DNA of 64,000 nucleotides, from contig OZ246415.1 of NCBI GenBank assembly GCA_965231115.1, positions 883,621 to 947,620 of the forward strand. Direction: 5' to 3'. The position numbers were made by a program, and so were the translations under genes. The DNA comes from an uncultured Candidatus Peribacteria bacterium. Its GTDB lineage: Bacteria > Patescibacteriota > Gracilibacteria > BD1-5 > JAGOOR01. Positions 10,204-51,578 of the stretch are shown piece by piece. A model generated the notes under the pieces. It was given only the letters and a program-made list of their open reading frames with translations, had not been told where the DNA came from and ran no database searches. The stretch's first letter is position 1; the number at the start of each line of letters is the position of its first letter.

Positions 10204-10253
10204 AAAATCCAAAAATTACCATACTACCTTTATTCTTTTTTTCACTTTATTGT

Positions 10254-11453: not shown

Positions 11454-12040
11454 GCCTTTCTCATTTTTGCCATTTTCTGAAGTACTTTCTCTCGGACGGA
11501 GAGTTGTTTCAAAATATTATCTGCACGGACAGGATCCCAAAACTTACTCAAAAAAAGTTTTCCATCCGCAGGGACAGAGAGTCAGATTCTCTTTCTTGTT
11601 TCACCTAACAATATTTGAACTCTTTTCTTATTATGAGTGGGGAGTTTAATTCTCAAAACTTGATCATCAAGAGTTGTTAATATCGATCGACTCTGTGGTA
11701 AATCACCGCTATCGCCTGGGTTTACATTTCATTTTACTGCGACACGACGTGTCGTATCAAGTATAGAAGTAATAATCTGAGTTGTTTGAAATGTATGAAT
11801 AAGTGCATCCGAACATCCTATGGAGCGTAAATAATCTGTTACAGTAAATCTATCCTCATTTTTATAAGCGAAGTGGATACAGAAAGGGTTTGTCCCCTCT
11901 GGATTACAGGGGCAATTCATAATTGCCTTCCGAACAGCAGAAGCTCCTCCTTCATTCCACAGTAACTCATGTCGGTGGTCACATGGAAGAGAAGTGCCAA
12001 AATCAACTGATTCGAGAGTAATACCTTTAGAAAGACACAT
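11450..12040 (-). CDS. hypothetical protein (196 aa)
   Basis: Track ORF 11729..12040 continues through TGA at 11729 and 11582 to TAA (plus tta 11450-11452). Overlaps the aminopeptidase stop in TTAA. Confidence 0.5.
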
Positions 12041-12090
12041 ATCGCATTATAATAAAATAAATTATTAAAATGCAAGTCATTTGAGCGTCT

Positions 12091-12498
12091 CTACTTTTTG
12101 AGAAGGTCTCGGATTTCCGTGAGGAGTTCTTCTTGGGTAGGGCCTTTCGGTGAATCAGAAGCTGGTTTTTGGAGCTTTGTCATGGCTTTTACGACGAGAA
12201 AGATACAAAATGCCACAATGAGAAAATCTACTGTTGATTGGAGAAAATTTCACCAATTAAGAGATACGGCAGGAATCCCCTTTTGAATACCTGGGAGCTC
12301 TTCAATCGCATCTTTTATGATGATTTTATAATCCGTAAAATTAATACCACCAGTGAGGACAGAGATTATTGGCATGATAACATCTCCGACAAGTGAGGTA
12401 ACAATCTTTCCAAATGCTCATCCGATAACGACTCACACGGCGAGATCGACGACATTACCCCGCATTGCAAAAGCCTTAAATTCTTTAATAAATGACAT
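12091..12498 (-). CDS. mscL: large-conductance mechanosensitive channel
   Basis: Hand translation [46 protein letters not shown] at 12433-12435 and 12418-12420 encode conserved glycines. Absent from the standard-code track. Confidence 0.85.
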
Positions 12499-12617
12499 AA
12501 ATTAAGAGAGTAAAAAATAAATCGAGTAAATGATAATGAGAGGCCAGAGAAACACAAGAAAACAATATTGCATACTCTCTAAAATTACATTACTATGACG
12601 AAAGAGTATAAAAAAAT

Positions 12618-12962
12618 ATGGCAACTACTATTATATATTACGACGATCAGTGTGGGGTATGTGGAAAATGGATAACGATTCTTCAAAAATACGGATCTCT
12701 CCGATATACGAGCTACATAGGACTTTCTCAGGCGCCAAAAGAAATACAAATACTTTCAGATTCACATAAATCATGGGTCATAGAAAGAGAAAATAATTAC
12801 TATCTAGGATATGCTGGCTTTATTGAATGCATAAAAGGATCTCGATTCTTTGGGTGGTTTTGATGCATAGGAAATTATTTTCCCCTGAAACAGATAGGAA
12901 ATATCATATACAAATATATCTCTTCTCGGAGAAAAACTTGTCGCATCAAAGCGCACCAGTAA
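12618..12962 (+). CDS. thiol-disulfide oxidoreductase DCC family (DUF393)
   Basis: YYDDQCGVCGKW N-terminal CxxC motif. Track ORF 12618..12863 continues through TGA to TAA 12960-12962. Confidence 0.6.
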
Positions 12963-12967
12963 AAAGA

Positions 12968-14014
<1,047 letters not shown>

Positions 14015-14060
14015 ATCTGTATCGTACAGTGAAAAATCAGAAAGCAAATTTTGACTTCTT

Positions 14061-15236
14061 CTAAAAATCCTCTCTCTTGATCCAAAAGACAATAAATGCT
14101 ATTGCAGAAAATGCTCCAGCAATCCACATAGGTGAGATCATATGATTGATAAAATAACCTCCGAGAACTGGTGCCAGGATAGCGGTAAGACTAAAAACAG
14201 AAGAGAAATAACCACTCACCTCCCCTCGTGTATCAGACGAAGCTTTTGAGACTCATTCAGATTGAAGCACTGGCCACATAGCAATAGTAAAAAAGACCAT
14301 GGTTACCTCACAAGCGAGCCACACAAGTATATGACGACCTCCAAACTGATCATAGAACGCTGTCATCGTAAAGAGAATAATCGAAGCTATGAGGGTAATC
14401 GTAAGTATCTGACGTGGAGAAAATTTCTTGAGCCAAAATTTGCCCAGAAGAAAACCCTGACAAAAAGCCATAAAAACTCCCACTCACATGAGAACATGAC
14501 TAATCTGAGGGATAGAGAGATGGTAAAATCTATCCATATACAGACTGTACGAATTTCGGTAGACTCCAGCACCGAGACCAACTAAAAGTGCGACCCAGAG
14601 ATAGAGAGATATATGACCCCGTATGAGTGCGCCAAAAACTGGAAACGAGCTCTTTTTTACAAAAGTTGTAATAATACTTGGTTTATGTGTTTCTGGGAGA
14701 AAGAACGTGATAAAAAGAGCATTGAGGAAGCTAATAATACCGGTAACAAAAAATGGTACAGCATAACCCCATTGAACGAGAAAACCGCCGAGAAAAGGCC
14801 CCACAATCATAGAAAGACCAAACATCATCCCAAAAATACCAAAATACTGTGCCCTTTCTTTTTCATCCTTCGATATATCAGAAAGTATCGCCTGAGCAAT
14901 AGTCATATTCCCCGCTGTCACTCCATCGATGACACGACCGACAAGAACCCACCAGAAGTTTGGAGCAAAAGCCGTAATAATCCAGCCAAGGGCAGAACCA
15001 AAAACACTCAGGGTCAGTATTTTTTTGCGACCGATACGATCAGAGAGTCGACCGAGAAGGGGTGATGCGACAAAACTACAAAGAGCATAAATACCACCCA
15101 TGATACCTATCCATATTGGACTGGCAGCAAATTGCGTCTCAAATATGGGAAGGAGTGGGAAAATAATAGTGAGACCGATAAGATCGAGAGCAATCGTCGT
15201 AAAAATAGCGGCTTTGAGTCAGCGAGAAGAATTCAT
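14061..15236 (-). CDS. MFS transporter (DHA1/TetA-like)
   Basis: GRLSDRIGRKK motif and about 12 TM segments. Track ORFs 14253..14483 and 14484..15101 are joined in frame by TGA. ATG at 15236. Confidence 0.75.
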
Positions 15237-15271
15237 AAATGAGACGATACGAAAAAAGTAAAAATAACAAC

Positions 15272-15853
15272 TTAGTTTGTGTGTCACTCAGACTGCCATA
15301 CTTTGATGGATTCGACAGGATGCACGAGCATGATGATATTAAGTGTGAGATTATCACGAACCCAGAGAAGACAGCCAATTTCAAAGACAATAATTATAGC
15401 AATGCTTACCCAAATTTTCGATATACGAGCCACGAGAAAACCCAAAGCCATCATGCCCACATCAGAAACAGAGTTCAGAATACTATCTCAGACATATCCG
15501 AGAGCAATAGTTGCCTCGCGATATCTATTTATGATGATGGGGGAATTTTCGAGAAGTTCCCATCCCCCCTCGATACCGAGAGCAAAAAGAAACCTATATT
15601 TCAGAGGAAGCCTACGAGCGACGAGCCAGAGAAATCCATAAAACAGAATACCGTGAATGATGTGTGAAAAAGAATATGCATCAGCAACTCTCTGAGAGTT
15701 TTCACTACTCCAGATATCACCATCCCAAAAACCAAATCTACCATCAGGACCGAGGAGGGAACGTCCACTTAAATATTCTATGACAGCCACCAAAGAAAAC
15801 ACAATTATTACGGAAATAATTGAGAAAAGATGTTTTTGTAAAAAAGATTTCAT
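15272..15853 (-). CDS. DUF2585-family membrane protein
   Basis: Track ORF 15488..15853 continues through TGA as GDSILNSVSD.. to TAA (plus tta 15272-15274). Confidence 0.55.
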
Positions 15854-15864
15854 AAAAAAAATAA

Positions 15865-16734
15865 TTATTTAATTCTCTCAGCCCCATAGACTCCCATCAA
15901 AAGATCGATATCTTTTTGGCTCTTTATCAAAAGATCGATATTTTTCTCTTCTGCTGCACAGAGTAATGCTGCACCGAGCGGATCGAGACCAACTTTTTTG
16001 ATATATTCGACGAGACCAGCAAAGTCTTTTATAAAACAGTGCCCCCCTGCGCCTCTCCCCTGATGTTCGAGGATTCATGAAGCATGGATGACATCGAGAT
16101 GACTCTTACCAATACGCGGATCAGATCCTATACCTTCTTTGATCACATCCCAACTACTTCCAGCATTTTCAGCCAAATCATAGAGAATATTAGCATAAAT
16201 CACCTTGAGAGTGAGAAAAGAATTACTGCCATATTTGATAAATTCTGCCTCACGAGAAGTACAGACGATATTTACAGGAGACGCTGGAAGAATATCGATA
16301 ATTTGTTGTGCTCGAGCCCTAAAGTCCTCGCTATCTACGGGATAACCGACGATATTTCTTGTCGGATTGGCGACATCATAGGCAGCCGTTTTTTCAGCAA
16401 GAAATTCTGGAGAATGAAAAACAAAACGATCAGAATAGAGCGCTTGAATCTTTTCGCATGTACCCGGCATCATGGTCGACTTGATAACTGCGGATTTACC
16501 AGGTCAAACTAATCCGACAACTTCACGGAGGATGTCATAATTAAAACCTTCAGGCGTAGTTGGTGTGGGAACACTGATAAATACAATATCACACTCGGAT
16601 AATCTCCGACGATTGTCAGGGGTATCAAGACGCTTCGAATAACGGAAGATATCATACCCTCTCGCCTCAAAATCATCAGCCATATTTTTCCCAATAAATC
16701 CTTGTCCAATAAATCCTATTAATAACTGGGACAT
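15865..16734 (-). CDS. short UDP-glucose/GDP-mannose dehydrogenase-family protein (289 aa)
   Basis: IGFIGQGFIGKNMA Rossmann motif and the catalytic GGHCFIKD motif. Track ORFs 16504.. and 16075..16473 plus a tail are joined across TGA. The ORF ends about 57 aa after the catalytic Cys. Confidence 0.7.
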
Positions 16735-16836
16735 AAAAAAATAACAAAAAGTAATACAAGAATTATTGAGATTTGTCTCTATTTGCAAACAAGAATAAAA
16801 AAATCCTGACAAACGTCAGGATTTTCGATTTTCAAA

Positions 16837-16924
16837 TGGCGGAGGGACTGAGATTCGAACTCAGGGTGACTTGCGCCACGACAGTTTTCAAGACTGTTGC
16901 ATTAAACCGCTCTGCCATCCCTCC
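16837..16924 (-). tRNA. tRNA-Ser (anticodon TGA)
   Basis: GGAGGGA acceptor, CTTGAAA anticodon loop, long variable arm, GGTTCGAATC T-arm and encoded CCA. Confidence 0.85.
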
Positions 16925-16943
16925 ATACTTAAAATGTGAGGGC

Positions 16944-16971
16944 ATTGTAGAAAAAAGTCATCCTCTGTCAA
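16944..16971 (-). promoter_or_regulatory. putative promoter of tRNA-Ser
   Basis: Minus strand reads TTGACA-16 nt-TACAATGC just upstream of the tRNA. Confidence 0.45.
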
Positions 16972-17112
16972 AGAAATATTTTATGGTAAGACTCTCTAGG
17001 GTACAATGCGCTATCGGAAAGTAAAGATAGGAGCATTTTTCTCGTCTTGCGCTTCAGGTCTCCGAAGTTATACTTACGCCCGTCCTTTATATCCTAATAA
17101 CCCAAAATTTCT

Positions 17113-17943
17113 ATGGACAAACACAGTCATCAAAGTGTCTACGCGGCCATAGCAGCGAGCACAATCGTTTCACTCCTCGGTACCTACTTTATGGTACAGC
17201 TTCCAAAGATAGAAGAAGTAGGCGGACGTGCAAACTACAAAATCTACCAAAACATGATCAGCAGTCCAAAATATGCTGAGAATGTAAAAAACTCTCTTGA
17301 ATCAAATCAGAAAGTCATGAATGGAGAGCAACCAACTCAGGGTAATAATCAGCAACCAACAGAACCAAAAGCAACTGGTAGCCTCACTCAAGATGATATC
17401 GGAGCAGTTCTCAAGGATACGTACCTCAAGGGCAATAAAGATGCTCAAATTCTCTGGGTCGAATACTCAGACCTTGAGTGTCCTTTCTGTAAGCGTCTCC
17501 ACGATTCTGGTGCTATCAAAAATCTCGAAGCAAAATATGGAGATAAGATGGCGTTCGTATTCAAACACTATCCACTCCCCTTCCATCCTACAGCACTTCC
17601 TGCAGCTGAGTCAGCTGAGTGTGTCGGTGAAATCGGCGGATCTGCTAAGTACTATGCTTTTGTAGAATGAGTATTTGCAAAAGGAACGCCAACACAAGAT
17701 GTTATTGATGGAGTTCTCAAGACTATTGGTGTTGATGCAAAAAAAGTAAAAACATGTGCTGATAGTGCAAAATTCAAGGACAAGATCAACGCAAGTCAGT
17801 CAGAAGGTTCTAGCAAATTCGGTGTCAATGGTACTCCTGGAAATGTCCTCATCAATACTAAAACTGGTAAATATGAAGTCGTATCAGGTGCCCAACCAGA
17901 AGCAAACTTTGATGCTGCTATAGGTCGTCTCCTCGCAGAATAG
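17113..17943 (+). CDS. membrane-anchored DsbA-like thiol:disulfide oxidoreductase
   Basis: N-terminal TM segment and CPFC active site. Track ORF 17113..17670 continues through TGA to TAG 17941-17943. Confidence 0.75.
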
Positions 17944-38689: not shown

Positions 38690-40189
38690 CTACTCGCCTC
38701 CTTTGACAAAGGTGTATGCAGTACCCTGTTTTCCGGCTCGCGCTGTACGACCGATACGGTGAACATAATCTTCACGAGTCGCTGGTTCATCGAAATTGAT
38801 GACATGCGTGACATCAGGAATATCGAGACCTCGAGCCGCTACATCAGTAGCGATAAGGATTTTTATTTTATTCGTGCGGAAGTTGTTGGTAATTCTCTGA
38901 CGGAGATTCTGAGATTTATCACCATGGAGAGCATCGACAGGCGCCCCGAGATCACGGAGATCATCAGAAACTCGGTCTGCCTCTCGCTTTGTACGAGTAA
39001 AGATGAGATACTTCCCTTCTTTATCCTTTTGGAGGAGATCATGAAGTTTCTGTTTTTTGTTTATCCCTGTCGTATAAAATACTACTTCTTGTGCGACACG
39101 AGAACCAACTGGTTCTGATTTGATCGTTACTTGAGTAGGGTTTTTGAGAAATGAATGAACATGACGCTCGATATCACGAGACATCGTCGCAGAGAAAAGC
39201 ACTGTCTGCTTATCTTCTGGGAGCATAGCCATGATTTCCTTGATATCATTGATGAAACCCATGTCGAGCATACGGTCAAACTCATCGAGGACGATGTGTC
39301 CATAATCAGAGAAATCAATCACGCCACGATCATAGAGATCCTTGAGACGACCTGGAGTCGCGACGATACAGTGAACACCACGCTTTATATCCATTATCTG
39401 ATTACGAGCATTAGCACCACCGACGACAACCGTCGAACGGAGGAAAGTCCCCTGTGTTATCCAACGAAATTCTGTCTGTACCTGATCCGCGAGTTCACGC
39501 GTTGGGACCATGACAAGGAGACGTTTTTTTACACCAGCGAGCATACGATGCACGATAGGGATGAGAAACGCTGCTGTCTTACCAGAACCAGTATTTGCGA
39601 GACCGAGCATATCAGAACCGTCCATGATGGCCTGAAGAGTCTTTTCCTGGATTTCTGTAGGCTTTTCATAGCCTTTTTTATCAATATTTTTGATAACATG
39701 CTCATCAAGAGCGAAATCATGGAATTTCTTTGTCACTTCGTACGGAGTGAATTTGAGCTCACCCGAATCGTCTGTCGGTGTAAACATATACTGTTTATAG
39801 CTTGGCTGCGGAGGCATACGACGACCGCCTGAGCGACCACCACCACCGAAACCACCACGCCCTCCAAATGAAGGCTTCCCTCCAAATGACGAACCACGAC
39901 CGCCGAAACTTGGACGACCACCAGATGATGGACGACCACCACCGAAACCACCACGTGCAGGGGCACCAAAAGTCTTGCGTTCACCACCAAAGGCAGGACG
40001 CTCACTTCGTGCACCATCACGACTTGGTGCATGACCAGGGCCGAAGCCTTTTTGTTCAGCACCACGACCACCCGAAAAGCCTCCGGATCTCGGAGCTCGC
40101 TCTTCGCGATTGTACTTCCCACGTGCACCTCGACTACCGGTAGGTTTACCAGTTTCAAAATCCTCTAACCGCTTCGAAAAATCGAACAT
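38690..40189 (-). CDS. DEAD-box RNA helicase with N-terminal Gly/Arg-rich region
   Basis: Uninterrupted 499-aa ORF with AxTGSGKT, PTRELA, LDEFD (DEAD variant), SAT and HRIGRTARAG motifs. About 125 N-terminal residues are GGR/FGG repeats. Confidence 0.85.
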   Translation of the reverse strand: MFDFSKRLEDFETGKPTGSRGARGKYNREERAPRSGGFSGGRGAEQKGFGPGHAPSRDGARSERPAFGGERKTFGAPARGGFGGGRPSSGGRPSFGGRGSSFGGKPSFGGRGGFGGGGRSGGRRMPPQPSYKQYMFTPTDDSGELKFTPYEVTKKFHDFALDEHVIKNIDKKGYEKPTEIQEKTLQAIMDGSDMLGLANTGSGKTAAFLIPIVHRMLAGVKKRLLVMVPTRELADQVQTEFRWITQGTFLRSTVVVGGANARNQIMDIKRGVHCIVATPGRLKDLYDRGVIDFSDYGHIVLDEFDRMLDMGFINDIKEIMAMLPEDKQTVLFSATMSRDIERHVHSFLKNPTQVTIKSEPVGSRVAQEVVFYTTGINKKQKLHDLLQKDKEGKYLIFTRTKREADRVSDDLRDLGAPVDALHGDKSQNLRQRITNNFRTNKIKILIATDVAARGLDIPDVTHVINFDEPATREDYVHRIGRTARAGKQGTAYTFVKGGE

Positions 40190-40373
40190 ACTAAAAAAGA
40201 AAAAAATAGAACCGCGTGAGGCTGGTCCTATTTAATTTTTCAATTGGTTTGAAGGAAAGAACTCTGCTCAGGCGAAGGACACTGTTGTGTATTGATAGAC
40301 TCTCTTAATTAAAACCAAATCTGGGATCTCACTGTAAAAGAATTTATCTGAATTTGTAACGTGTACTTCTCGC

Positions 40374-40400
40374 ATTATACAGAAAATATTTTTTTGACAA
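40374..40400 (-). promoter_or_regulatory. putative promoter of the helicase gene (long leader)
   Basis: Minus strand reads TTGTCA-15 nt-(TG)TATAAT, about 175 nt upstream of ATG 40189. Confidence 0.35.
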
Positions 40401-40450
40401 GTTTATTTTTTATTTCCGTATAAATTTTATGTATAAATATGGTTTAGACA

Positions 40451-40477
40451 TAAAAAATGACCCTCCTGTGGGGTCAT
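40451..40477 (-). terminator. hairpin terminator downstream of the low-GC operon
   Basis: atgaccc / gggtcat stem with a 7-nt loop and a T-run on the minus strand. Confidence 0.5.
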
Positions 40478-40574
40478 ACTATAATGGAATAAATAGTTAT
40501 TGGTTGACCTAAAGGTCTAGAACCATTTGGTGATCAGAAATGGGACAAATGGCACACCTAAAAAGGTCATTATC

Positions 40575-41537
40575 TTATCAATTAATTATGGGCTCAATGA
40601 CAGATGTTAATATATATCAGTATTCTCAATCTATACCTCATTTTCTTACCCATTTCTTTGTTCATACCAATAGAAGAAAAAAATTAATCCACTCCGTGTT
40701 AATTTTATATCAAGTCACATTTTCATACTCGTGGATTAATGTTTCTAAGACTCCATTTTCTCTAAGAGAAGGATTCCAAGTAATCATGAGAGCAAGCTCT
40801 TCTTCTGGAAATCACCACCGTATTGTTCACCCAAAATCTATAAGTCGAGAAACATCTCAATTAAACAAAACATTTCATTGATGAATATCTCCATGTAAAA
40901 GCCTTACATCTTTTGATTTTTTTTCTGGCAAATTTTTATATATTTGTGCTAATTTTAATAAAATTAAATCTATTAGATTTCATGTTTTTCAGGATTTTTG
41001 CTTAATCTCTGCTGTTACATTTGTAACATAATCATCTAAATTATTATGCGGACCTATACCCTGAGTATTTAAATAGGCATATCCTGGTGGTTTATCTTGC
41101 ACTACATTGTGGACTTGAGCAATATTTGTTCATAGACTTACTAACTGTAGTTTTCCTGGAACGTAATCGTCTCACATTGATTTCCATGTCTTGCCTTCAA
41201 CAAGGTCTTGTAGTACCCAATAATAGATCCGCTGATCATTTTCATAAACACCCATTGAGTATATATGCGGGATTAATCATGGATATTTATTTTGTATAAA
41301 TAATTCTAATTCTGTTTCTTTATGCATTCTCTCTGTCAATGAAATTTTAAGTGCAAATTTTATTCCATTAATATCTACTTCTACACAACTTCTATTTCTT
41401 CCAGATCATATAAACCGCCAATTAATTCAATTTATTCACATAATACCATCAACTCTTGACTGCATATTTGATCATAGAGTGACACTATTAACTATGTTGA
41501 TAATTTCTCCAGAAAATACCGGATCTAAAACCTCCAT
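40575..41537 (-). CDS. aminoglycoside/choline-kinase-like phosphotransferase (APH family)
   Basis: Codon-by-codon check: open from ATG 41537 to TAA (plus tta 40575-40577) with 19 in-frame TGA. LLHGDIHQ-G-NVLFN-G-DVSRLIDFGG catalytic/DFG-like motif. Confidence 0.65.
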
Positions 41538-41568
41538 AATGTTGTAAATTAATTATCTAAGTATTTTT

Positions 41569-42693
41569 CTATTTGTTGATTGATAGTCTTGATTGTGAAT
41601 TAATAGAGGATCATAGTTGATAAATCCTGTCATGTACATCATCAATAGACGTAGCATCCCTAAATTTTACAAAAAAATCAACAGTCTTATATCATGTGGG
41701 AGTAGAATAAAGCTCTCTTATATCAAATCACAAATTATGAAATAACCCCATAGCATTTTTTAGAGTGCCACTTTTTTGAGGAATTTTGATCAATCACGTA
41801 AATTCAGAGTTATTTTCGTTAGAGGACAATAATTTAAATCAAAAATTAAGAGGGTCTAAATCTTCTAAATCATTATCGTAATGATCCCGTTTTTTAGTAT
41901 ATGTATAAATAAATTCCATTTCATCGATTCATTTTTTTATGGAAACAATTCCTAGTATACTTATACCAGACTCATGCAATTCTGTTAATTTCTGATGCAG
42001 GGATCATGGTACATCTGGAATATTCATTATTTCACAATTCAATTCATCTGACAAGGCTCATGATGGGACAATATCTTCTGGATATTCAGAGTTATTTGCC
42101 CCCATTAGTAAGAAATATGTAAAATTATTTCTAGGTCAAAATTCCCTCGATAATATATCAACAGACTCATCGTCAATACTCGGGATGTATTGATGTGGAG
42201 CAATCGCTCATGCATATGAATCTAATTTAGGAGAGTTTTTTTGAGCATGAATATGTTCGATAGCTCAAGATGTTGAACCAGTATTAATATGATTTAGTTT
42301 TTTTCAGAACATAGCAACTTGTGAATCTGATGTTTGGTAAAAAGACTGCACGTGTGTTCACAGGTCATGAATATTTCAAATAGGAGTTCATTTTTTACAA
42401 ACAAGCCAATATTCAATTTTCATCTTAGTTACTGCAAGTATTTTTAGTTGAGACATAGAATTACCAATTCCCTCAAGTGTATCTTTTACAGACGATCAAA
42501 AAACATTATAAAATGGAATTAAAGCCAATCAGTTTGGAGTTTCAGAGTTCAATAAGGACTCAACTGCAAGCTTATTGGAAGAGCATAATTGATAGCATGA
42601 CTTTTTATCCAATCATAAATCATTAGCATGTTGAACAGTATTTGTGGCTCTAGAAGGAGTGCCTGGATTACCAAGCAAGAAAAGTTTGTGCAT
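41569..42693 (-). CDS. divergent prephenate dehydratase-like protein (PDT plus ACT domains)
   Basis: Codon-by-codon check: open from ATG 42693 to TAG (plus cta 41569-41571) with 18 in-frame TGA. FLLGNPGTPS, LIPFYNVFGSSV, NNFTYFLL (TRF-motif position). ACT-like IPQKSGTLKNAMGLFHNLGFDIRELYSTPT..VDFFV. Confidence 0.55.
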
Positions 42694-42698
42694 AAAAA

Positions 42699-43394
42699 TT
42701 AGGTAGAAGAAATTACGCGTTCGGCTGTAGCTTTAGCTAAAATGCTCATGGTGTCAAAAAGTGAAAATTCATAAAAGTTTGTGCATATAAGCTGTAAATC
42801 AGTACAAGCCAGAAGTACATCTTTTACTTGTTTACTTCTCATGGTTTCAACTATTTCATGTATAACTTGTTGGTTATTTTGAGAAGAAATATTATTTACG
42901 ATATTATATATAACTAAATCTAGCTTTGATTGCAAATCTGGATCAATTTTTACAATATTGATAGATTTTTGGAGTAGTGGCAATTCATACAGTTGATATT
43001 TTGAAGTAGCAGTTGTAGAGAGTAATCAAATCAATGTAATTCAAATTGCAGCAAGATAGTTTACAGTTTCATCTATAATACTCACAACAGGTATGGAAAC
43101 AGCTCTACGTATTTGCTCAATTAATACATGAACTGAATTACAAGGGATTACAATAAAATCTGCTCCACCTTTTTCCAAATTTTTCGCTCCTTCTATCAAG
43201 TAAGGCAAATATTCAGTTATTCATTCACCTGTTAAAAGAAAATTTTTCTCTAAATCAAGTGGCAATGCCGTATTCCATATAAGTATTGGAGGTCTAGTAT
43301 CAATCTTATTTTGTGAAAAAATATTAATTAATTCTAAATAAAATTTAGCAGTTGTATCTGGTCAAAGTCATCAAAGGACGCCTATAGTTTTCAT
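42699..43394 (-). CDS. aspartate/glutamate-type amino acid racemase
   Basis: MKTIGVL-G-GL-G-PDTTAKFY N-terminus. Two catalytic Cys contexts, VIPCNSVH and LLACTDL. In frame with track ORF 42699..42983. Confidence 0.7.
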
Positions 43395-43397
43395 AAA

Positions 43398-45941
43398 TTA
43401 TTTAATAATAAATTGGATAAATTTTCATTTTCCGTATTTCAAAACAACTTTGTCTCAAACTTTGAAATCAAACACAGTATTCATGCCTGTAATCTTTTCG
43501 TTATTCACCGATATTGCTCATCATTGAACCCTTCTCCGTATTTCAGATCCAGAAAGAGATACATTATTTTCTTTCACAAGAGATAATAAGCTCATAACAT
43601 TAAATCATTCCTCTAAATAAGTTATCTCCATAGTTACAATATCGCTAGGAGCCTGTTTTTTAGAAAAGACTTGCTCAAATTCTCTCTCTGCAGATTTAAC
43701 CATATCATCTTCATAAAAAAGACCAAGTATGCATCTAGCCAGCATTTTTTTAACGAGAATAGGGTTAATTAATCACGATTTAACAGCTTTTTCAATGAAT
43801 TCTACTTCATCCTCCGAGGTGGAAACAACATAAGAAAAATAAGTTAACATCTGCTCATCGTTCATGGACATTATTTTTCAATAGTCCTTATCAACTTTGT
43901 GTTGTAAGTTTTCTTCTGGCTTCATGCCAACAAAGTTATTGTATGTTTTACTCATCTTTAGCCCATCAAACCCATTAAGTAGGGGTGTCGTAATAACTGC
44001 TTGGGCAGATTGTCCCTGACTAGCTTGTAAATCCCTTCATCTATAGAGATTAAACAATTGATCTTGCCCTCCGAGTTCCACATCTGAATTTAAAACTACC
44101 GAGTCCCATCATTGAAGCAAAGGGTAGATAAATTCTCAAATAGCTATTGAGCCGCCATCTTTCATTCTTTCTTTGAATTGTTCTTTTTGAAGCATTTGTC
44201 CGATTTTTCATTTCATCGCTAGGCCTAGTAAATCTGCTGCAGTCCAAGTTCCATACCAGTCCTTGTTATATACTATTTTTGCAGAACCTGAGTCTAGATC
44301 AATAACTTTACGAACTTGAAGAATATAGGTCTCAATATTTTTGTTAATTTGTTCCTCACTCAACACCTCTCTTGTGCTTTTTTTATCGGGATCACCTATT
44401 GTGGCGGTAAAAGTACCGATTAAAAAACGAATTTCATGTCAAAGTGCTTGGAAAAGGTGTAATTTTTTTAATGGAATTAAGTGACCAATATGTATTTCAT
44501 CTCATGTCGGGTCTATTCACAACTTAATAATTAATTTTTTTCAGGCTTTTATCTTTTGAGCTAATTCTGACTCCCCTATAAAATCAGCAGTACCTCTTTT
44601 GATAAGCTCAATTTGCCCCTCGGGAGTAGATTTCTTAACATCAAAATCATGTGGCAAAAACCTTCTTCACTTTATCTCATGCTCTATATTCTCCAGCTCC
44701 CCGGAGATATTTATTTCATCCATTTTTAAGTGCTTATATTTTCATGTGTGCGATGCCGCTACAGATGGCTCACTATTTCTTTCTAAATTCAAATCTGTAT
44801 TCATACTTCAGAGAAGATCTTTCTTTTCTAATCAAGTAATTTTTAGGTTTACATCACTCACAAAATGTAGATATTCCTCTGGAGAAATATTACAAATTTT
44901 ACAAATTTGTTCAAGTTGAACCTGTCTATCTTTAGAAAATCTATCAAATGCTTGAGGTGAAACACCTTGTCTTTCAAATAATATATCTCATTTTGGATCC
45001 TCATAGTACGGAGGTTTCAAATACATATCCGATGTTAAATGGACATGATTAGGATTTCGTGCTTGTCAAAGCAATGTTGTTCTAATTAGTACTCGAAGAT
45101 GATTAAAATTTCTCTCAGCTTTTCATCATAATGAGATATAGTAAGGATTATCGTATTGGTGATGTGCTTTATTTATGCCTTTATCATGAAATAAGTCCTG
45201 TAATCAGTAAATGTGACTTACTGCATATTTTAACGCATTTTTTTTACCTTCTTCTCATCCATGTTTTTCTCACATTTTCCTAAATACTGCAATTAAGTTT
45301 TGTACTTCTTGTTCATTCATTGAGTTTAAATTTTGCTCAATTTGATCAATTTGCTCCTTAACTTCATCATCCATCAAAAGGTAATCAAAATCAACTATAT
45401 CAACAAGATCAGGAAAATACTTTTTTATAAAACTCTTTAAAATAAATATAGTTTTTAAGCTTTGTATTTGAGTTTTTTCTGCATCGTATCCATTAAATTC
45501 TATCGCTTCAGACATTCATAAATGGATTCTTAGTCTTGAGGAGCAATTCGGATGGTGTTTATTAATAGTAGTATGAACATGTCGCAAGTATCCTAGTCAT
45601 CCTAGAATATAGCTTGGTAAAACTATGCTTGTAGAACTTTGAATTCCTCAAATACCCACATTCATAATAGTATTGACTTGTTTTCATTGAATAACATCCC
45701 TCGATAAATTAAATAAATCAGGAATAGTCGCTTCAGATATGTGTGTATAATTCAAACCATGGCCTATTCTAATCAAATCTAGAAATATATTCCTATGCGC
45801 CAAAGATTCAAATTCCAATCAATCATATGCAAGGTTATCTTTAGTAGGATCCTCAAGTATTCTCAAGACACGACCATGCGTTAAGGTTGGATTTTCATGA
45901 ATACTTTTTCATGAGCTTGTCGTTTCTTGTAAACTAAGCAT
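43398..45941 (-). CDS. tyrS: tyrosyl-tRNA synthetase fused to an unassigned N-terminal extension of about 435 aa (847 aa)
   Basis: Whole ORF checked codon by codon: no TAA/TAG between ATG 45941 and TAA (plus tta 43398-43400), with 32 in-frame TGA. HIGH motif (EIHIGHLIPL) at about residue 483. ELGGQDQ, YPLLQ-G-WD, KMSKT and an S4-like C-terminus SGSEIRRRVQGGAISVNNEKI. A TAA lies two codons upstream of the ATG. Confidence 0.75.
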
Positions 45942-46027
45942 AAGGAATTATTTAAAATAAAACATGAGAATAATATTGAAAGAATAAAAGAAAAAAACTG
46001 AATTTATATGAAATAAATAATAATAAA

Positions 46028-46057
46028 ATTATTGATATATTGAATATTATCAATAAT
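46028..46057. promoter_or_regulatory. perfect 10-bp inverted repeat (candidate operator) in a divergent intergenic region
   Basis: attattgata (46028-46037) and tatcaataat (46048-46057), separated by the near-palindromic spacer tattgaatat. Lies between ATG 45941 (minus) and ATG 46086 (plus). Confidence 0.4.
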
Positions 46058-46085
46058 ATTTTTCATATTGTTTCATTTTATTCCT

Positions 46086-47831
46086 ATGAATACAGCCGAG
46101 TTACAAGAATTACATCCAGAAGAATATAGAGACTTCTTCTCTCATAATATGATGGTTTTTTCCCTACCCTTTTGTATGGTATGGATGGGGAGCTCAGATG
46201 AAACAAGCGTAATACACATAAAACAATCTATACCTCTCAGAATTTTTATATGAATACGAAAAGTCAGTTCCCCCTGAATCCATCTCAAAAATTTTCGGTC
46301 ATATTCACATTTTCGAGAAAAATTTTTTACTCGTAAAATGCCTGATTATCTCCCTCCAGCAGATATGTATATCAGACAATTGCTGAAGGAAATGCCAATA
46401 AATGAAGGAATAGAGTTATCAATACTTTCCGAATGCTGAAGAACTTTAGGCTTTGGTACACATACGCTAGTGTTATTTAGTATTTTTCTAGCACGAAAAT
46501 GGCTCGATGATGATAGTATTTTTCAAAAAATGAGTGAAGAATCTATAAAAGCACCTCATGAAGCTATCTGACCAAATACATTTTTATATGAATTGCTCAT
46601 AGAACATCAAAAAATCCTAAAAAAAATACAGCAAGATTCAGGTTTCATGATTCTCGCAACTTGCCTCCTTGGCTGAGCCTACCCTATTGTCTCATACACA
46701 TCAGCTAGAAAAGATACATATAATATTTTTGCTTTTTCTCTTAAAGATTTTCTGGGTGAACATGCACCTGAGTATCCTCATTGTAGCTATGAGCAATCTA
46801 TTTATTTTCCTGGACTCCCATATCTCTATGAGAACTATATAAGATCCAACAATCCAGACAAAATTAATATCGATACACCAAGAAAAATAATACATGAAGT
46901 TACGGCTAAGCGCCATAAGAATTATACCGAAGAACAAATCCCTGATTTTCTATGTTCTTCATCGGACCTATCTCATGAAAATTTCACAAATATACTCATG
47001 AGGCTCAAGACCTATAAAAGTATTCAAATATTCCAAGCAATGATACAGGCACATAAACATGAATGATCTCAGAAAAGCTCACTTGAATTGATAACATTAT
47101 TAGAACAAAGGATCTCTCTAGATACCCTAAAAACCAATGTTGATGAAGATATGAAACAATGTTATCATGATATTTGGGAAAAATTTCATAATAAATCCCA
47201 TCCTGCCATTTTCCCAAATATTACACTTTGAAGTTGAGGCTGTTTTAACATTATCAGCCCTCCGATTGTTCATCAAGATATTATGCGTGAGTTACCAACT
47301 TCAATGAGAGATAATTATCCCGATGGGGTAACTGTTTATAGGAGTTGGAAAGATGGTTTGGAGTTAAATGGTTTTACATTAGAACAAAATATAAGTCAAA
47401 AACATTATCATAAGCTCACAGAAAGGAATATCGGCTTATGTACCGTCTCTAACGAAGTATATGTTATACCTCAGAGTGGTTTAGAAGCGTTTTCTAAGGG
47501 AAAAGTTATTTTTGATCTTTCAAATCAGAAAATATATGCCGACTGACATACAGTAACAAGTGCACAAATACCGTCACAGAAGGCTACAATTGAGATAATT
47601 AAGCTTCTTCTTGATGCACCAAATAACATTCTCAAAAATTCGGAACTTCCACGATCAGTCTATAGCAGTATGAAGAGCGAAATGAATTGAAAAATAATCA
47701 GCCCGATTAATAAAATTTGTCACGAGGTTACTGGTGAATTATTCCCTCTTTTACTTGAAGGCAGTCTCAGTAAATTTACACTACAACTTACACTACAACA
47801 AGATAAATATCTTGGTTTTTTTACTCGTTAA
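46086..47831 (+). CDS. fusion protein: GHMP-kinase-like N-terminal region plus OmpR/PhoB-type winged-helix DNA-binding C-terminus (581 aa)
   Basis: Codon-by-codon check: open from ATG 46086 to TAA 47829 with 10 in-frame TGA. FSLPFCMVWMGSSDET (GHMP motif I-like), SEC-G-RTLGFGTHT (motif II-like). C-terminal VIFDLSNQKIYADGHTVTSAQIPSQKATIEIIKLLL..ILKNSEL..KIISPINKI resembles Trans_reg_C. Confidence 0.5.
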
Positions 47832-47913
47832 CATCAATCGTTTTCTCGGAAATAATCTCCACACCTTTTTGCCTGGTTCAGAATATAATCTGTATACAGT
47901 GTCTTAAAAAGAA

Positions 47914-48507
47914 CTATTCCAAAGATTTTTCTATCTCAAGAAGCGTTTCAAATTCCTCTATCATTGGATGATTCCAGGTTTCTCGAAGCATCTTCAGAAC
48001 ATTTTCTTCAAACCAAATTTTTTTATCCTTTCATTTATTAAAAAGCTTCCAAATATCTTTTCAGTGATCATTGTAAGCTATAAATAAAGCTTCGAGATTG
48101 TGAATTTTATCAGCCACAGCAATTGCTTTTGCTCACTCTGATCCATTCCTGACAGTTTCAATATATTTAAGTTTTTTTTCTTCCCAAGGAAGACTCGGGT
48201 CATTTGAAACTGCCTTTACTAATTCGTACACTTCTTCTCCGAGTTCCTCACGGAAACTATCTACAGTATAGTTCGTGTCTTCCAGGACATCATGAGTTAG
48301 AGCAGAGGCTAGTATGGTATCTGAAAAGCCATATTTTGCTAGCCTTAGAGCAATCATGAAAGGATGTGTCATGAAAGGAACTTCCTCTCATTTCCGTTTC
48401 TGGTTAGCATGAGCTTTAACGGCAAGCCGAGTGGCTTTTTCAAGAATTCATATATCAAAATCAGGTTTTTTAATCTTCTTTTCTGCTTTTTTTAGATTTT
48501 TTTTCAT
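47914..48507 (-). CDS. HD-domain hydrolase, SpoT/RelA-hydrolase (small alarmone hydrolase)-like
   Basis: HANQKRK..PFMTHP and ALTHDVLEDT motifs. ATG 48507 is in frame with track ORF 48133..48372 and continues through TGA to TAG (plus cta 47914-47916). Confidence 0.65.
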
Positions 48508-48618
48508 ACGATAAATTTTATTTAATAAAGCCCTCTTGTCACGATTGATATTAGTTTCAATAATCTTGAAGCATCTAAGCGTCTCTCGCACTAATCAATC
48601 ACAACACAATCATAATTG

Positions 48619-49221
48619 TTATCGTGCTGCTCCCGAGCTTTTAGATAGACCATATTCCCAAGGATTAATAGTTTTATAATCGTAGAGGTAGAGGACTTTG
48701 TGTTTTTTCGGATCTTTTTGACGAGAATTATAGGCTTCAATTTCTGCTTCTATATTAGGCACACTGTCTTCTCTGCTAACCCCGATATAGATATTTTTAA
48801 CAGGACTCTGAATTATGGCTTTCAAGATGTGTTCATCGTGTTTCTTGAGAACGGTACCGAATATAAGAAGATCTCCTCAAATAGCTCAAAGAGATCTGTA
48901 ACAATGATTGAGGTAGCCATTATGGATGATTTTTTTCATCTTTTGCTCACTCTCTCACTCTGAAACAAAAACAGGATAGATGTTGTTCTCGAGATTGCCT
49001 CGTATTTGTGTTACCAGATCGACTCAAGTCTTGCTATATGTCTTTTTGATTATTTCGTCTCCTGCATCGAAGATATGGAGTGCTCCATGAAGAAAGTGCA
49101 GTTCGAAGCTTTTTGAATTCCAATAAACAACAAATCACTCATGGGAACTCTCTTCAGTTTCTCAGAAACCGTCTTGGCGATAGGGTACAAAAAAGGGCGG
49201 TCGAAACGCGCTTTCATGAGA
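48619..49221 (-). pseudogene. probable 5'-truncated remnant of a SIR2-like/DUF4917-like gene
   Basis: The frame is open for 200 codons below an in-frame TAG (plus cta 49222-49224). No ATG/GTG/TTG occurs in the first 94 codons, although they contain protein-like LHFLHGALHIFD and FVSEGESEQK motifs. The first ATG (48939) would give only 106 aa. Family call is from memory of the motif pattern. Confidence 0.4.
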
Positions 49222-49842: not shown

Positions 49843-49917
49843 TGGTTGGGGATGAGGGATTCGAACCCCCGCGTGGCGGAGTCAAAGTCCGCTGCCTTAC
49901 CGCTTGGCTAATCCCCA
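49843..49917 (-). tRNA. tRNA-Gln (anticodon TTG)
   Basis: TGGGGAT/ATCCCCA acceptor, GCCAAGCGGTAAGGC D-arm, CTTTGAC loop, GGTTCGAATCC T-arm and encoded CCA. Confidence 0.85.
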
Positions 49918-49983
49918 ACGTACGCCTGAGTTTAGAGAAAAATCTGTTTTTGCAAATGCTGTTTTCCAAATAAAATATTTTTT

Positions 49984-50011
49984 TTGACAAATAGTATCCT
50001 CTCTCTACAAT
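49984..50011 (+). promoter_or_regulatory. putative promoter of tRNA-Asn
   Basis: TTGACA-16 nt-TACAATGC, 8 nt upstream of the tRNA 5' end. Confidence 0.5.
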
Positions 50012-50019
50012 GCCCCAGT

Positions 50020-50094
50020 TCCTCGGTAGCTCAGTGGTAGAGCAGTTGGCTGTTAACCAATTGGTCGTAGGTTCGAATCCTACCCGGGGAGCCA
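50020..50094 (+). tRNA. tRNA-Asn (anticodon GTT)
   Basis: TCCTCGG/CCGGGGA acceptor, GCTCAGTGGTAGAGC D-arm, CTGTTAA loop, GGTTCGAATCC T-arm and encoded CCA. Confidence 0.85.
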
Positions 50095-50145: not shown

Positions 50146-51471
50146 TTATTGAATATCTATTACTATTTCCTCAAGAGCTTTATCGAGAGCTTTATCAGCT
50201 TCTTCTTGACTCTTGCGACTCCCTGCTACTATCCAGCCAATCTCATCGAGGATACATCATCTCGGAGGAAAATCACACTCCATGCCCACTTCTGCGAAAA
50301 ATACATATTCGAGGATATGACTCATATCTTCAGGTCACTTCAGATTTTTGAGAACACCAGCACTCGTAGTAAATAGATCTGCAGTTTTCATATACGGATA
50401 CATTCCAGATTTTGATGAGACATTTTTCTGTGAGAGCTCCATCCCGAAGGCAAGTTCGAGATTCGCAAGGATAAGGTCATAATTATCCTGTCAGAGCGGA
50501 AAAACAAAGTTTTCACCTCCTCCCATTCGAAAATTTATCTCTATAAGTGCAAATGAAAATCCGAGACTATCGTGTCGCACGCGAAATTCGACATGGAGAC
50601 AGGCAGTCTGTATATCTCGAGCTTGGTCCAGAATATGCTGAGTATATCGTATGACTTCTTTTTGTTCTTCCTCATCGAGACAACTGCATGTCTGAGAACC
50701 ATTTTCGAGAAATCATGGCTGTTGAGGTACGAAATTCTCCACAAATCACGACCAGACAATTTTTCCATTTTTGACAACGAGATTGAGATCGATATCAGTT
50801 CACTCAAAATAAGGCTCTAGGGTGATGGAAGAGAGACCGTGTTTTTGGACACAGACATTCAATTCTTCTGGAGTGCGGACGACATGTATGAGAGATTTCC
50901 CCACGCTCTCCACACCTTTGAGAATCAGCGGAAAATTATCAGACGAAACATGCTCATAGTCAACACACGGGAGAGATATAACATGAGAGCAGTCGAGAGA
51001 GAGTGAATTTTTTTGAGCGAAGAGCCATTCTCGAAGAGTTTGTTTATTTTTGAGGTGAGCGAGGATAAGAGGATTGATGCCAGGCTTACCGAGAAATTGC
51101 GCTATCTGAGCACAGAGGACGACACTTTTATCAGCAAAAGTCCATACGCCATCAAAAGTAATATTTTTTTCTTGGGCATATGATGATATTGCCTGAATGC
51201 GAATATCAGTCTCAGGGGCATCTGGATTCTCCAGAGGAGAAAATGAGTCATCACACGCTATCACGCCATCTACAGAATCAGAAAACCAACCCTGTGACCT
51301 ATCGAGAACTATTAGTTTTCCGACTCAGAGGTCTTTTATACGTTTAAAAACGAGGTATTTTAAACTCGGACCCGCATTGATGAGGAGTATGGTTTTATTT
51401 TTTAATTGTTCTCTATATTCAGCTGACGGCAATGTAGAATCCCAGAGGGTAGTATCAAAATATGTGAGCAA
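50146..51471 (-). CDS. ATP-grasp family ligase (start uncertain, probable TTG)
   Basis: The frame is open from TAA (plus tta 50146-50148) up to an in-frame TAA at 51493-51495. It contains track ORF 50800..51264. IEINFRMGGGE ATP-grasp motif and a pre-ATP-grasp KTILLINAGPS segment. No in-frame ATG upstream; the first candidate start is TTG at 51471. Confidence 0.6.
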
Positions 51472-51578
51472 TCAAGAGGTTAGTCAAGGACATTATGCAG
51501 AAAAAAATGAAAAATCCAATTCTTCGTAATTCCTTTATATAAAAGAATACAGACAAACTTGCTTTAGAAAAATTTTGG

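Follow-up and report, generated by a model that had tools for sequence, protein, structure and literature searches.

A tyrosyl-tRNA synthetase fused to a predicted class Ic-like domain forms a conserved unit with a two-cysteine amino-acid racemase in bacteria of the candidate phyla radiation

We analyzed 64,000 nucleotides (the window) of an uncultured Candidatus Peribacteria bacterium (assembly GCA_965231115.1, contig OZ246415.1, positions 883,621 to 947,620). A four-gene operon at 40575-45941 of the window encodes an extended tyrosyl-tRNA synthetase (TyrRS), an amino-acid racemase, a protein resembling prephenate dehydratase (PDT), and a kinase. A first-pass annotation, made from the letters alone, had taken these four genes as the unit of interest. 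Comparison of gene neighbourhoods in relatives from the candidate phyla radiation (CPR) yielded a different core: a family of proteins predicted to resemble class Ic aminoacyl-tRNA synthetases (aaRS), here referred to as the paralog, an aromatic aaRS, and a racemase of the Asp/Glu type. The PDT-like gene is a frequent companion of this unit in the lineage using genetic code 25, whereas the kinase gene and a nearby HD_4 phosphohydrolase gene are local additions. We consider this structural and evolutionary description very probably correct. The function that we favor, supply and charging of aromatic amino acids, is put forward more cautiously below.

Results

The operon is read with UGA as glycine

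When TGA was read as sense and only TAA and TAG were taken as stops, the window filled with long open reading frames (ORFs). Under table 11 the longest ORF at 40575-45941 was 113 aa, and about half of the coding capacity of the window was lost. Stop counts per frame showed TGA to be greatly overrepresented in one frame of the minus strand. Since TGA codons occupied invariant glycine positions, such as those in VLggLgPDTT of the racemase, HGDIHQgN of the kinase, and the GGxDQ glycine of the relative P0002, the whole window (1-64000) was assigned to code 25 (UGA = Gly), and code 4 (TGA = Trp) was rejected. Code 25 is the code of Gracilibacteria and of Absconditabacteria-type CPR bacteria. Entries for these proteins in public databases have been translated with code 4 and carry W at the TGA positions. 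The host contig is 1,050,320 bp long (about 1.05 Mb). The operon has the following parts.

45941..43398, minus strand: tyrS, 847 aa, 32 in-frame TGA codons
43394..42699, minus strand: racemase gene, 231 aa, beginning 3 nt past the tyrS stop
42693..41569, minus strand: PDT-like gene, 374 aa
41537..40575, minus strand: kinase gene, 320 aa, the last gene of the operon
40477-40457, minus strand: terminator-like hairpin with a T-run, a consensus match 98 nt past the kinase stop

With TGA as sense, the four co-directional minus-strand ORFs and their gaps of 3, 5, and 31 nt were exactly as first described, and the profile searches reported below reassigned none of the four family calls. An independent Logan assembly (L044) gave gene calls and a junction with the flanking genes identical to those of the window. 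The four-gene operon is thus confirmed as real, provided that TGA is glycine. A single downstream terminator had been proposed, and the hairpin after the kinase gene was the sole terminator-like site on the minus strand in 40000-48800, and the operon itself contained none; taken overall, the scan did not rise above shuffled sequences. The four genes are likely co-transcribed, judging from this layout.

A promoter-like site lies on the plus strand at 40389-40430 (TTGACA, a spacer of about 19 nt, TATAAAT) and faces into the operon's 3' end. Between two tRNA genes, at 49972-49991, a nearly identical AAAATATTTTTTTGACAA stretch is found again.

The TyrRS carries an N-terminal domain with a predicted class Ic-like fold

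The tyrS product was divided into two parts.

43398..44666, minus strand: canonical bacterial-type TyrRS part (aa 426-847), with catalytic, anticodon-binding, and S4-like C-terminal domains
44667..45941, minus strand: N-terminal extension (aa 1-425), predicted class Ic aaRS-like paralog domain without HIGH and KMSKS

The product matched TIGR00234 with 299 bits against a cutoff of 113.8 (aa 445-846, model positions 9-405 of 406), and the TyrRS part matched PF00579 at 3e-61. The HIGH (IHIGHL), KMSKT, and ELGGQDQ motifs were present in this part and kept in all homologues. By profile and motifs it is a bacterial-type class Ic TyrRS, 35-40% identical to other CPR bacterial TyrRS. A scan of a genome collection returned only CPR TyrRS at up to 40% identity over the full domain and two short end-of-contig fragments at 45-54%; its back-translated patterns cannot match TGA-encoded glycines, which makes it uninformative on the distribution across GTDB.

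The extension, in which neither HIGH nor KMSKS was found, had no sequence match in Pfam, NCBIfam, or PDB. An AlphaFold2 model built from five homologues reached a pLDDT of 70 and a pTM of 0.73. Foldseek was used to compare this model with PDB, and 49 of the top 50 matches were tryptophanyl-tRNA synthetase (TrpRS) or TyrRS, the exception being PIsnA at rank 22. The matches had E-values down to 1e-5 and TM-scores of 0.4-0.5, and spanned about 370 columns, among them the helical anticodon-binding part. The end of the extension (about aa 365-425) is a poorly conserved linker. Conserved motifs elsewhere were GIGG / IGMGGS, KMGEKHGG, NALxYAxxHxY, GGKAERNFN, and KPPYY / PVYYxARDGD, with AHPxYNQ and GGxPQxxFN as further motifs of the paralog family; GGKAERNFN resembles GGxDQxxN. 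No signal emerged when the paralog family was compared, profile against profile, with the TyrRS halves and TrpRS. The structural matches suggest, with medium confidence, that the extension is a class Ic aaRS-like domain. The first-pass call of an extended TyrRS therefore held for the synthetase family, but the aaRS-like nature of the extension, which emerged from AlphaFold2 and Foldseek, had been missed.

An HMM search of 1.84 billion cluster representatives identified 83 members of the paralog family at E <= 1e-3. Most are free-standing proteins of about 360-450 aa without a Pfam domain, one of them listed as a hypothetical protein in a metagenome-assembled genome of Candidatus Paceibacterota. 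Fused members are few (843-861 aa, plus one of 810 aa); among the TyrRS homologues compared, the extension was carried by P0001-P0005, P0007, and P0009.

The racemase is the constant partner of the paralog and an aromatic synthetase

The racemase scored 102 bits on PF01177 (gathering score 31) and 136 bits on TIGR00035 (cutoff 93). Its closest solved structure was the aspartate racemase of P. horikoshii (1JFL, E 9e-30), with which both catalytic cysteines aligned, in the contexts PCN(T/S)xH and (G/A)CT(E/D). The early assignment of a racemase with both catalytic cysteine contexts was thereby upheld, and by profile the product is a racemase of the pyridoxal phosphate (PLP)-independent, two-cysteine Asp/Glu family. 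The CuyB equivalog model gave 140 against a cutoff of 190, and no model assigned a substrate.

Six distinct fused loci were compared (the window, L001, L004, L030, L031, and L033), together with an unfused sister locus and loci with free-standing paralogs; percentages for the fused and sister loci are identities of the TyrRS to that of the window.

Window: 581-aa gene (divergent), TyrRS with extension, racemase, PDT, kinase
L004 (88%): the gene set of the window plus HD_4
L033 (63%): PDT, TyrRS with extension, racemase
L001 (57%): 582-aa gene (divergent), TyrRS with extension, racemase, PDT; without kinase
L030 (46%): TyrRS with extension, racemase, NUDIX
L031 (42%): 593-aa gene and PLP enzyme (divergent), TyrRS with extension, racemase, PDT, prephenate dehydrogenase (PDH)
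L006 (57%, unfused sister TyrRS): no paralog and no racemase; divergent 586-aa homologue
L035: paralog, TrpRS (TIGR00233, 278 bits), racemase (42% identical to that of the window)
L036: paralog, TrpRS; flanked by three integrases
L037: Trp-repressor-like helix-turn-helix (HTH) gene, paralog, aminotransferase, phosphatase
L038: racemase, paralog, chorismate-mutase-like/methyltransferase fusion (read by eye, not by profile), TrpRS
L040 and L041: paralog, racemase (contig ends)
L042: paralog, then TrpRS
L043: paralog adjoining racemase and TrpRS

The racemase gene lay directly 3' of the fused TyrRS gene in all six loci. A close homologue of the PDT-like protein was found in four of the six (window, L001, L004, and L033); that of L031 is shorter and more distant, and L030 has none. 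A kinase homologue accompanied the fused gene only in L004, so that the full four-gene set is confined to the window lineage and this one close relative. The free-standing paralogs belong to CPR bacteria with the standard code, and their usual neighbours are TrpRS and/or a racemase of the same family; TrpRS lay within about 2 kb of the paralog in five of the eight loci with usable flank. Pairwise identity matrices of the N-domain, the TyrRS domain, and the racemase gave a congruent ordering, indicating that the three have been inherited together. No tRNA-Tyr or tRNA-Trp gene accompanied the module, and no tRNA gene adjoined it in the 13 loci scanned.

Among code-25 relatives the fused unit sits with genes of Tyr/Phe biosynthesis (PDT and PDH), and the unfused tyrS of L006 stands in a post-shikimate operon (9742-17219) with shikimate kinase, EPSP synthase, chorismate mutase, an aminotransferase, a PDH-PDT fusion, and chorismate synthase.

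The PDT-like protein has a second ACT-like domain and the kinase belongs to the APH family

The PDT-like protein matched PF00800 with 42.5 bits (gathering score 25.2, aa 18-200), but failed at the equivalog level: NF008865 gave 40 bits against a cutoff of 219, and every NCBIfam model was far off. Its best PDB match was the PDT 3MWB (E 0.36). The TRF motif is changed to TYF, and ESRP of the ACT domain to YSTP. The PDT domain is followed by an extra ACT-like domain (aa 216-282), which aligned with the ACT domain of aspartokinase, and by the canonical PDT ACT domain (aa 299-343). The initial description as a diverged PDT-ACT protein with TYF stands, but what was seen as an insertion of about 90 aa is this extra ACT-like domain. 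The PDH-PDT gene of L006, which belongs to a complete pathway operon, has TYF as well, and for this reason the protein of the window may still be catalytic, with TYF possibly typical of the clade rather than inactivating. Alternatively, it may serve as an ACT-domain sensor instead of a catalyst using external precursor. In L006, a 73-aa ACT-only remnant homologous to the C-terminus of the window PDT-like protein lies ahead of tyrS.

The kinase scored 48 bits on PF01636 (gathering score 23.2) with HGDIHQGN and IDFGG intact, in agreement with the earlier APH-like call. Its best solved relative was the hygromycin kinase APH(4)-Ia (E 0.014). It was compared with aminoglycoside, fructosamine, homoserine, MTR, thiamine, and SrkA kinases and fitted no characterised subfamily, the NCBIfam equivalog models reaching at most 27 bits, far below their cutoffs. 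By profile it is an APH-family (eukaryotic-like) kinase of small molecules or proteins.

A 17-nt element and a divergent gene accompany the operon

Two features upstream of tyrS fall outside the limits first given to the unit.

45986-46002, minus strand: 17-nt element TTCAGTTTTTTTCTTTT, a candidate operator or promoter site lying 45 nt ahead of the tyrS start
46086..47831, plus strand: gene of a 581-aa protein, divergent from tyrS; conserved, candidate regulator

The element is flanked by a TTTCA repeat 11 nt upstream and a -10-like box about 10 nt downstream. At up to two mismatches it occurred once per locus, upstream of the first gene of the operon, in the window, L001-L004, L006, L030, L031, L033, and L034. 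At up to three mismatches the window held six copies against 1.18 expected by chance, and 45986-46002 was the only match with fewer than two mismatches. Homologues of the 581-aa protein (27-83% identity) occupy the same divergent position in L001, L004, L006, and L031. In L034, a 604-aa homologue faces a different operon that bears the element and consists of an SIS-like gene (sequence read by eye), an APH kinase, an amino-acid kinase, and NUDIX. Because the element accompanies the divergent gene of about 590 aa, the 581-aa protein is a candidate regulator, and the pattern points to a regulon defined by this protein. In L034 (CAYUVP010000020.1, GCA_964448195.1; 8969-9817) a run of N interrupts the SIS-like gene, and the neighbouring gene content is perhaps incomplete.

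The 581-aa protein had no match in Pfam, NCBIfam, or PDB, and AlphaFold2 gave no usable model (pLDDT 33). By eye its C-terminus had been read as an OmpR-type winged helix. hhalign against PhoB and OmpR returned the expected register at a probability of 1.3%, and the reading was rejected, as was a by-eye reading of the N-terminal part as GHMP-kinase-like. In the 144-nt intergenic region upstream of tyrS, no T-box or other Rfam family was detected, even at E <= 1. This region holds a perfect 9-nt inverted repeat, TTATTGATA-N10-TATCAATAA, at 46029-46056, 30 nt upstream of the start of the 581-aa gene; it is partly kept in L004 and absent from more distant loci.

The operon lies in a low-GC block that behaves like an island

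The operon is part of a compositional block together with the divergent gene and one further gene.

40582..48564, both strands: compositional block of about 8 kb with the four operon genes, the 581-aa gene, and HD_4
47914..48507, minus strand: HD_4 (RelA/SpoT-type HD) phosphohydrolase, 197 aa, PF13328 47 bits; last gene of the block

GC content in the block was 0.30-0.35, with GC at third codon positions of about 0.2, and 36-64% of its glycine codons were TGA. For most other genes of the window GC was 0.40-0.48, and about 10% of glycine codons were TGA. The limits of the block were drawn from DNA similarity to L004, which was restricted to it (84.6% over 8.0 kb); the flanks were unrelated. The same offset between module and flanks was observed in L001 (10001-14397), L004 (3414-11364), L030 (2057-5334), and L033 (450-4854). 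Across these five genomes, the window included, GC was about 0.30 in the module and 0.40-0.47 in the flanks, and TGA made up about half or more of the module glycines. In L031, GC was 0.22 throughout and about 90% of glycines were TGA. The HD_4 gene was conserved only in L004, and in both the window and L004 a tRNA-Gln gene adjoins the block. Deviant composition, flanks that differ between relatives, and a nearby tRNA gene are found here, as in genomic islands; no integrase, transposase, att site, or boundary direct repeat was found in or beside the block of the window. The search for a phage or defence origin gave no viral contig and no PADLOC match, only generic PHROG matches. Among code-25 bacteria, the block has the character of an exchangeable island. 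Its composition may reflect repeated transfer from a very low-GC code-25 donor or selection on codon usage.

L034 is related to the window in SufB (92% identity), a neighbouring 530-aa protein (88%), an ATP-grasp protein (52%), and the regulator homologue (58%), with synteny that holds up to the ATP-grasp gene and then breaks. In the window, the 448-codon ATP-grasp-like frame (50146-51492, minus strand) has no ATG near its 5' end and marks the edge of a hypervariable region. Between the block and a tRNA-Gln and tRNA-Asn pair at 49843-50094 sits a 106-aa ORF (48619-48939, minus strand) whose match to DUF4917 is limited to the last third of the profile, at its C-terminal end (positions 223-308 of 311); it is probably a gene remnant. 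On the other side, a DEAD-box helicase (38690-40189, minus strand) has a long Gly/Arg-rich N-terminal tail with 64 GGN codons and no TGA. Among the loci with free-standing paralogs, the paralog-TrpRS pair of L036 (509-12192) lies amid three phage-type integrases and excisionase-like HTH genes, and in L035 (9193-10669) two IS200/IS605-type transposase genes follow the module.

Discussion

A proposed module for supplying and charging aromatic amino acids

Because its companions are PDT, PDH, and chorismate mutase genes, we place the module in Tyr/Phe supply. We propose that it provides tRNA charging with an aromatic amino acid of the correct handedness. The racemase would interconvert D- and L-tyrosine (D- and L-tryptophan in the TrpRS versions), feeding L-Tyr to the synthetase and lowering the D-Tyr that TyrRS mischarges. 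The paralog domain would be a non-catalytic partner of the synthetase, either as one half of a pseudo-dimer or as a checkpoint binding the amino acid or aminoacyl-tRNA. The PDT-ACT-ACT protein would make or sense Phe/Tyr precursors, and the protein of about 590 aa would control the operon through TTCAGTTTTTTTCTTTT. Besides TyrRS, TrpRS is known among class I enzymes to transfer its D-enantiomer. Of all aaRSs, TyrRS is the least stereoselective, and it charges D-Tyr (PMC6765224); B. subtilis has a second TyrRS that discriminates against D-Tyr, according to PMC11005379, which cites Williams-Wagner 2015. An aromatic or D-amino-acid salvage or quality-control module was one of three functions suggested at the outset, and it gained from the neighbourhood comparison, with PDT, PDH, chorismate mutase, aminotransferase, and shikimate genes nearby and the racemase as the most constant partner.

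Several observations weigh against this explanation or parts of it. The nearest solved relative of the racemase is an aspartate racemase, and an aromatic substrate is not indicated. The model of the extension was built from only five sequences, with W at the TGA positions, and is of medium confidence; the low TM-scores of its fold matches and the null profile-profile comparison with TyrRS and TrpRS bear on the same point. At the paralog locus L037, neither an aaRS nor a racemase stands alongside. The operon lacks chorismate mutase and aminotransferase genes, and a catalytic PDT would need prephenate or arogenate from outside. The proposed regulatory role of the 581-aa protein derives only from its position and the shared element, the winged-helix reading having failed statistically. 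Taken as a whole, anatomy and inferred mechanism together, aromatic supply and charging is the best explanation available, at somewhat below an even chance of being right; the D/L supply mechanism by itself is more tentative still.

A bolder form of the favored explanation is quite unlikely, namely that the paralog and the racemase constitute a previously unknown tRNA-linked system of amino-acid chirality in CPR bacteria. It could stand in for D-aminoacyl-tRNA deacylase in proofreading TyrRS and TrpRS, the two synthetases with the strongest tendency to mischarge D-amino acids, or it could form D-Tyr- or D-Trp-tRNA on purpose for further use; in the code-25 lineage it would have become part of the synthetase by fusion. 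Motifs of D-aminoacyl-tRNA deacylase were absent from the 64-kb window, which says nothing on the rest of the genome.

Alternative explanations

We considered whether the locus could instead be an accessory, horizontally moving aaRS island, in which a second, specialised TyrRS tolerates an inhibitor or stress and the kinase inactivates a small-molecule toxin, on the model of TyrZ and of resistant IleRS and TrpRS copies. The compositional island with unrelated flanks in the window and four other genomes fits this scenario, as do the tRNA-Gln gene adjoining the block in the window and L004, the integrases of L036 and IS200-type transposases of L035, and the resolvase, restriction-modification, and UmuDC-type genes near the module in L001. 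L034 carries different cargo beside the same regulator family, and the kinase is of the APH family. The block of the window, however, has no integrase, att repeat, or transposase in it or next to it, and no PADLOC matches or viral contigs. Its TyrRS domain resembles ordinary CPR TyrRS, and the module travels with genes of primary metabolism. No second TyrRS is known for any of these genomes; duplicate aaRS genes are rare in CPR genomes of about 1 Mb, which also counts against the island. We regard this alternative as unlikely. The self-resistance cassette proposed in the first-pass annotation may yet apply: the compositional island and the integrases and transposases around some relatives speak for it, but biosynthetic, export, and defence genes are missing. 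For its third suggestion, a stress module, the neighbouring HD_4 gene is the one point in favor.

The paralog could also be a regulatory sensor of amino acid or tRNA that tunes the synthetase, the racemase, or the PDT-like enzyme, with the racemase serving general D-amino-acid needs such as cell wall synthesis. HisZ, a paralog of HisRS that regulates HisG, provides the analogy. Loss of the catalytic motifs with strong retention of the family motifs (GGS, KHGG, AHPxYNQ, GGxPQxxFN, and PVYYxARDGD) is consistent with a sensor, and so are the biosynthesis genes, the ACT domains, and the Trp-repressor-like gene that accompany the domain. A sensor does not account for the choice of a racemase over a biosynthetic enzyme as constant partner, and we consider this reading distinctly unlikely.

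Nearly the same standing, at most, is given to a biosynthetic cassette dependent on aminoacyl-tRNA. The motif-less domain would use Tyr- or Trp-tRNA from its synthetase in the manner of cyclodipeptide synthases, the racemase would supply or epimerise a D-residue, and the kinase would modify or detoxify the product. The predicted fold of the extension, class Ic-like and free of HIGH and KMSKS, is shared by cyclodipeptide synthases; the aaRS is obligately adjacent or fused, the racemase is constant, and APH-type kinases are common in self-resistance. Against this, no cyclodipeptide synthase was among the top 50 fold matches, and those matches extended over the anticodon-binding part that cyclodipeptide synthases lack. 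The module keeps company with genes for PDT, PDH, chorismate mutase, and aminotransferase and with a Trp-repressor-like gene, and tailoring, export, and carrier genes are missing; Mukai et al. were likewise negative for the ORF1 operons discussed below (PMC5370408). Such a cassette is improbable.

That tyrS is an ordinary housekeeping gene whose neighbours were packed by genome compaction without functional coupling would suit the compactness of CPR genomes, the short intergenic gaps throughout the window, and the variation of kinase, HD_4, and NUDIX between loci, but it is disfavoured as very improbable, since the racemase stays 3' in all six loci even where the TyrRS domain is 54-55% and the N-domain 32-34% identical, the same grouping of paralog, racemase, and aaRS reappears, with TrpRS, in CPR bacteria of the standard code, the components co-evolve, and the 17-nt upstream element is conserved.

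Significance

Were the aromatic supply and charging explanation and its anatomy to hold, a bacterial double-length class Ic synthetase would join the single eukaryotic example, and a sizeable family absent from Pfam (the 83 representatives) would be tied to aromatic aaRSs across the CPR. The link to a racemase would give partners of the ORF1 type a testable role in D/L discrimination or salvage of Tyr and Trp. A candidate regulator-operator pair is added to a group with almost no known transcriptional regulation. CPR bacteria are usually seen as amino-acid auxotrophs, and the tyrS-headed Tyr/Phe pathway operons carried by some code-25 members (L006) are unexpected for presumed auxotrophs. The TGA enrichment and low GC of the block make a useful marker of gene flow among recoded bacteria.

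Comparison with known systems

As in the enterococcal tyramine cluster, which holds tyrS (PMC3315439), genes of tyrosine metabolism lie together with a TyrRS gene and presumably share its regulation. The enterococcal cluster has a decarboxylase, an antiporter, and a leader RNA, whereas the module has a racemase, PDT/PDH-type genes, and a candidate pair of protein and DNA element. With TyrZ of B. subtilis and D-aminoacyl-tRNA deacylase the module would share a dedicated provision against D-Tyr, if the stereochemical role inferred here is correct. TyrZ, a TyrRS of one domain, is controlled by MarR and a T-box and is described without racemase or paralog; no T-box was detected ahead of the tyrS of the window. 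Cyclodipeptide synthases resemble the extension in having a class Ic-like Rossmann fold without HIGH and KMSKS, as predicted for the extension, and in taking their substrate from an aaRS. They are about 230-300 aa long, lack the helical anticodon-binding part, and are absent from the top fold matches of the extension.

We know of no double-length class Ic synthetase from bacteria. The TyrRS of Leishmania and other trypanosomatids is a double-length pseudo-dimer (Larson et al. 2011, as cited in PMC5370408). Like it, the protein of the window is predicted to hold two class Ic-like halves in one chain, with the catalytic motifs in one of them. In Leishmania both halves are recognisable as TyrRS, whereas the N-terminal half here has no detectable sequence similarity to TyrRS and comes from a family with free-standing members, and a complete TyrRS with an S4-like domain forms the C-terminal half.

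Among published systems, the closest is that of the ORF1/TrpRS-A pairs in CPR and DPANN, in which the aaRS-like ORF1 always stands beside TrpRS-A (Mukai et al. 2017, Life 7:8, PMC5370408). A heterodimer of ORF1 with TrpRS-A, or a pseudo-dimer role, was proposed there, citing the double-length TyrRS of Leishmania, with the function of ORF1 left unknown (PMC5370408). Both systems place a predicted aaRS-like protein outside any described family beside a class Ic synthetase, and in both a gene of the Trp-repressor type leads some operons, represented here by L037. The ORF1 operons contain an archaeal-type TrpRS-A and a tRNA-Trp(A73) gene, whereas the paralog is fused to TyrRS or stands with TrpRS and has no adjacent tRNA gene. 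With the general TIGR00233 model the partner TrpRS reached 273-278 bits, as against 51-102 bits with the PRK12285 TrpRS models; it fits the general model and is assigned here to neither the bacterial nor the TrpRS-A type. No racemase, PDT, or kinase was reported for the ORF1 pairs, which were compared with our family by their description only. What is new relative to ORF1/TrpRS-A is the type of synthetase, an operon free of tRNA genes, the fusion, and the partnership with a racemase and a PDT-like protein.

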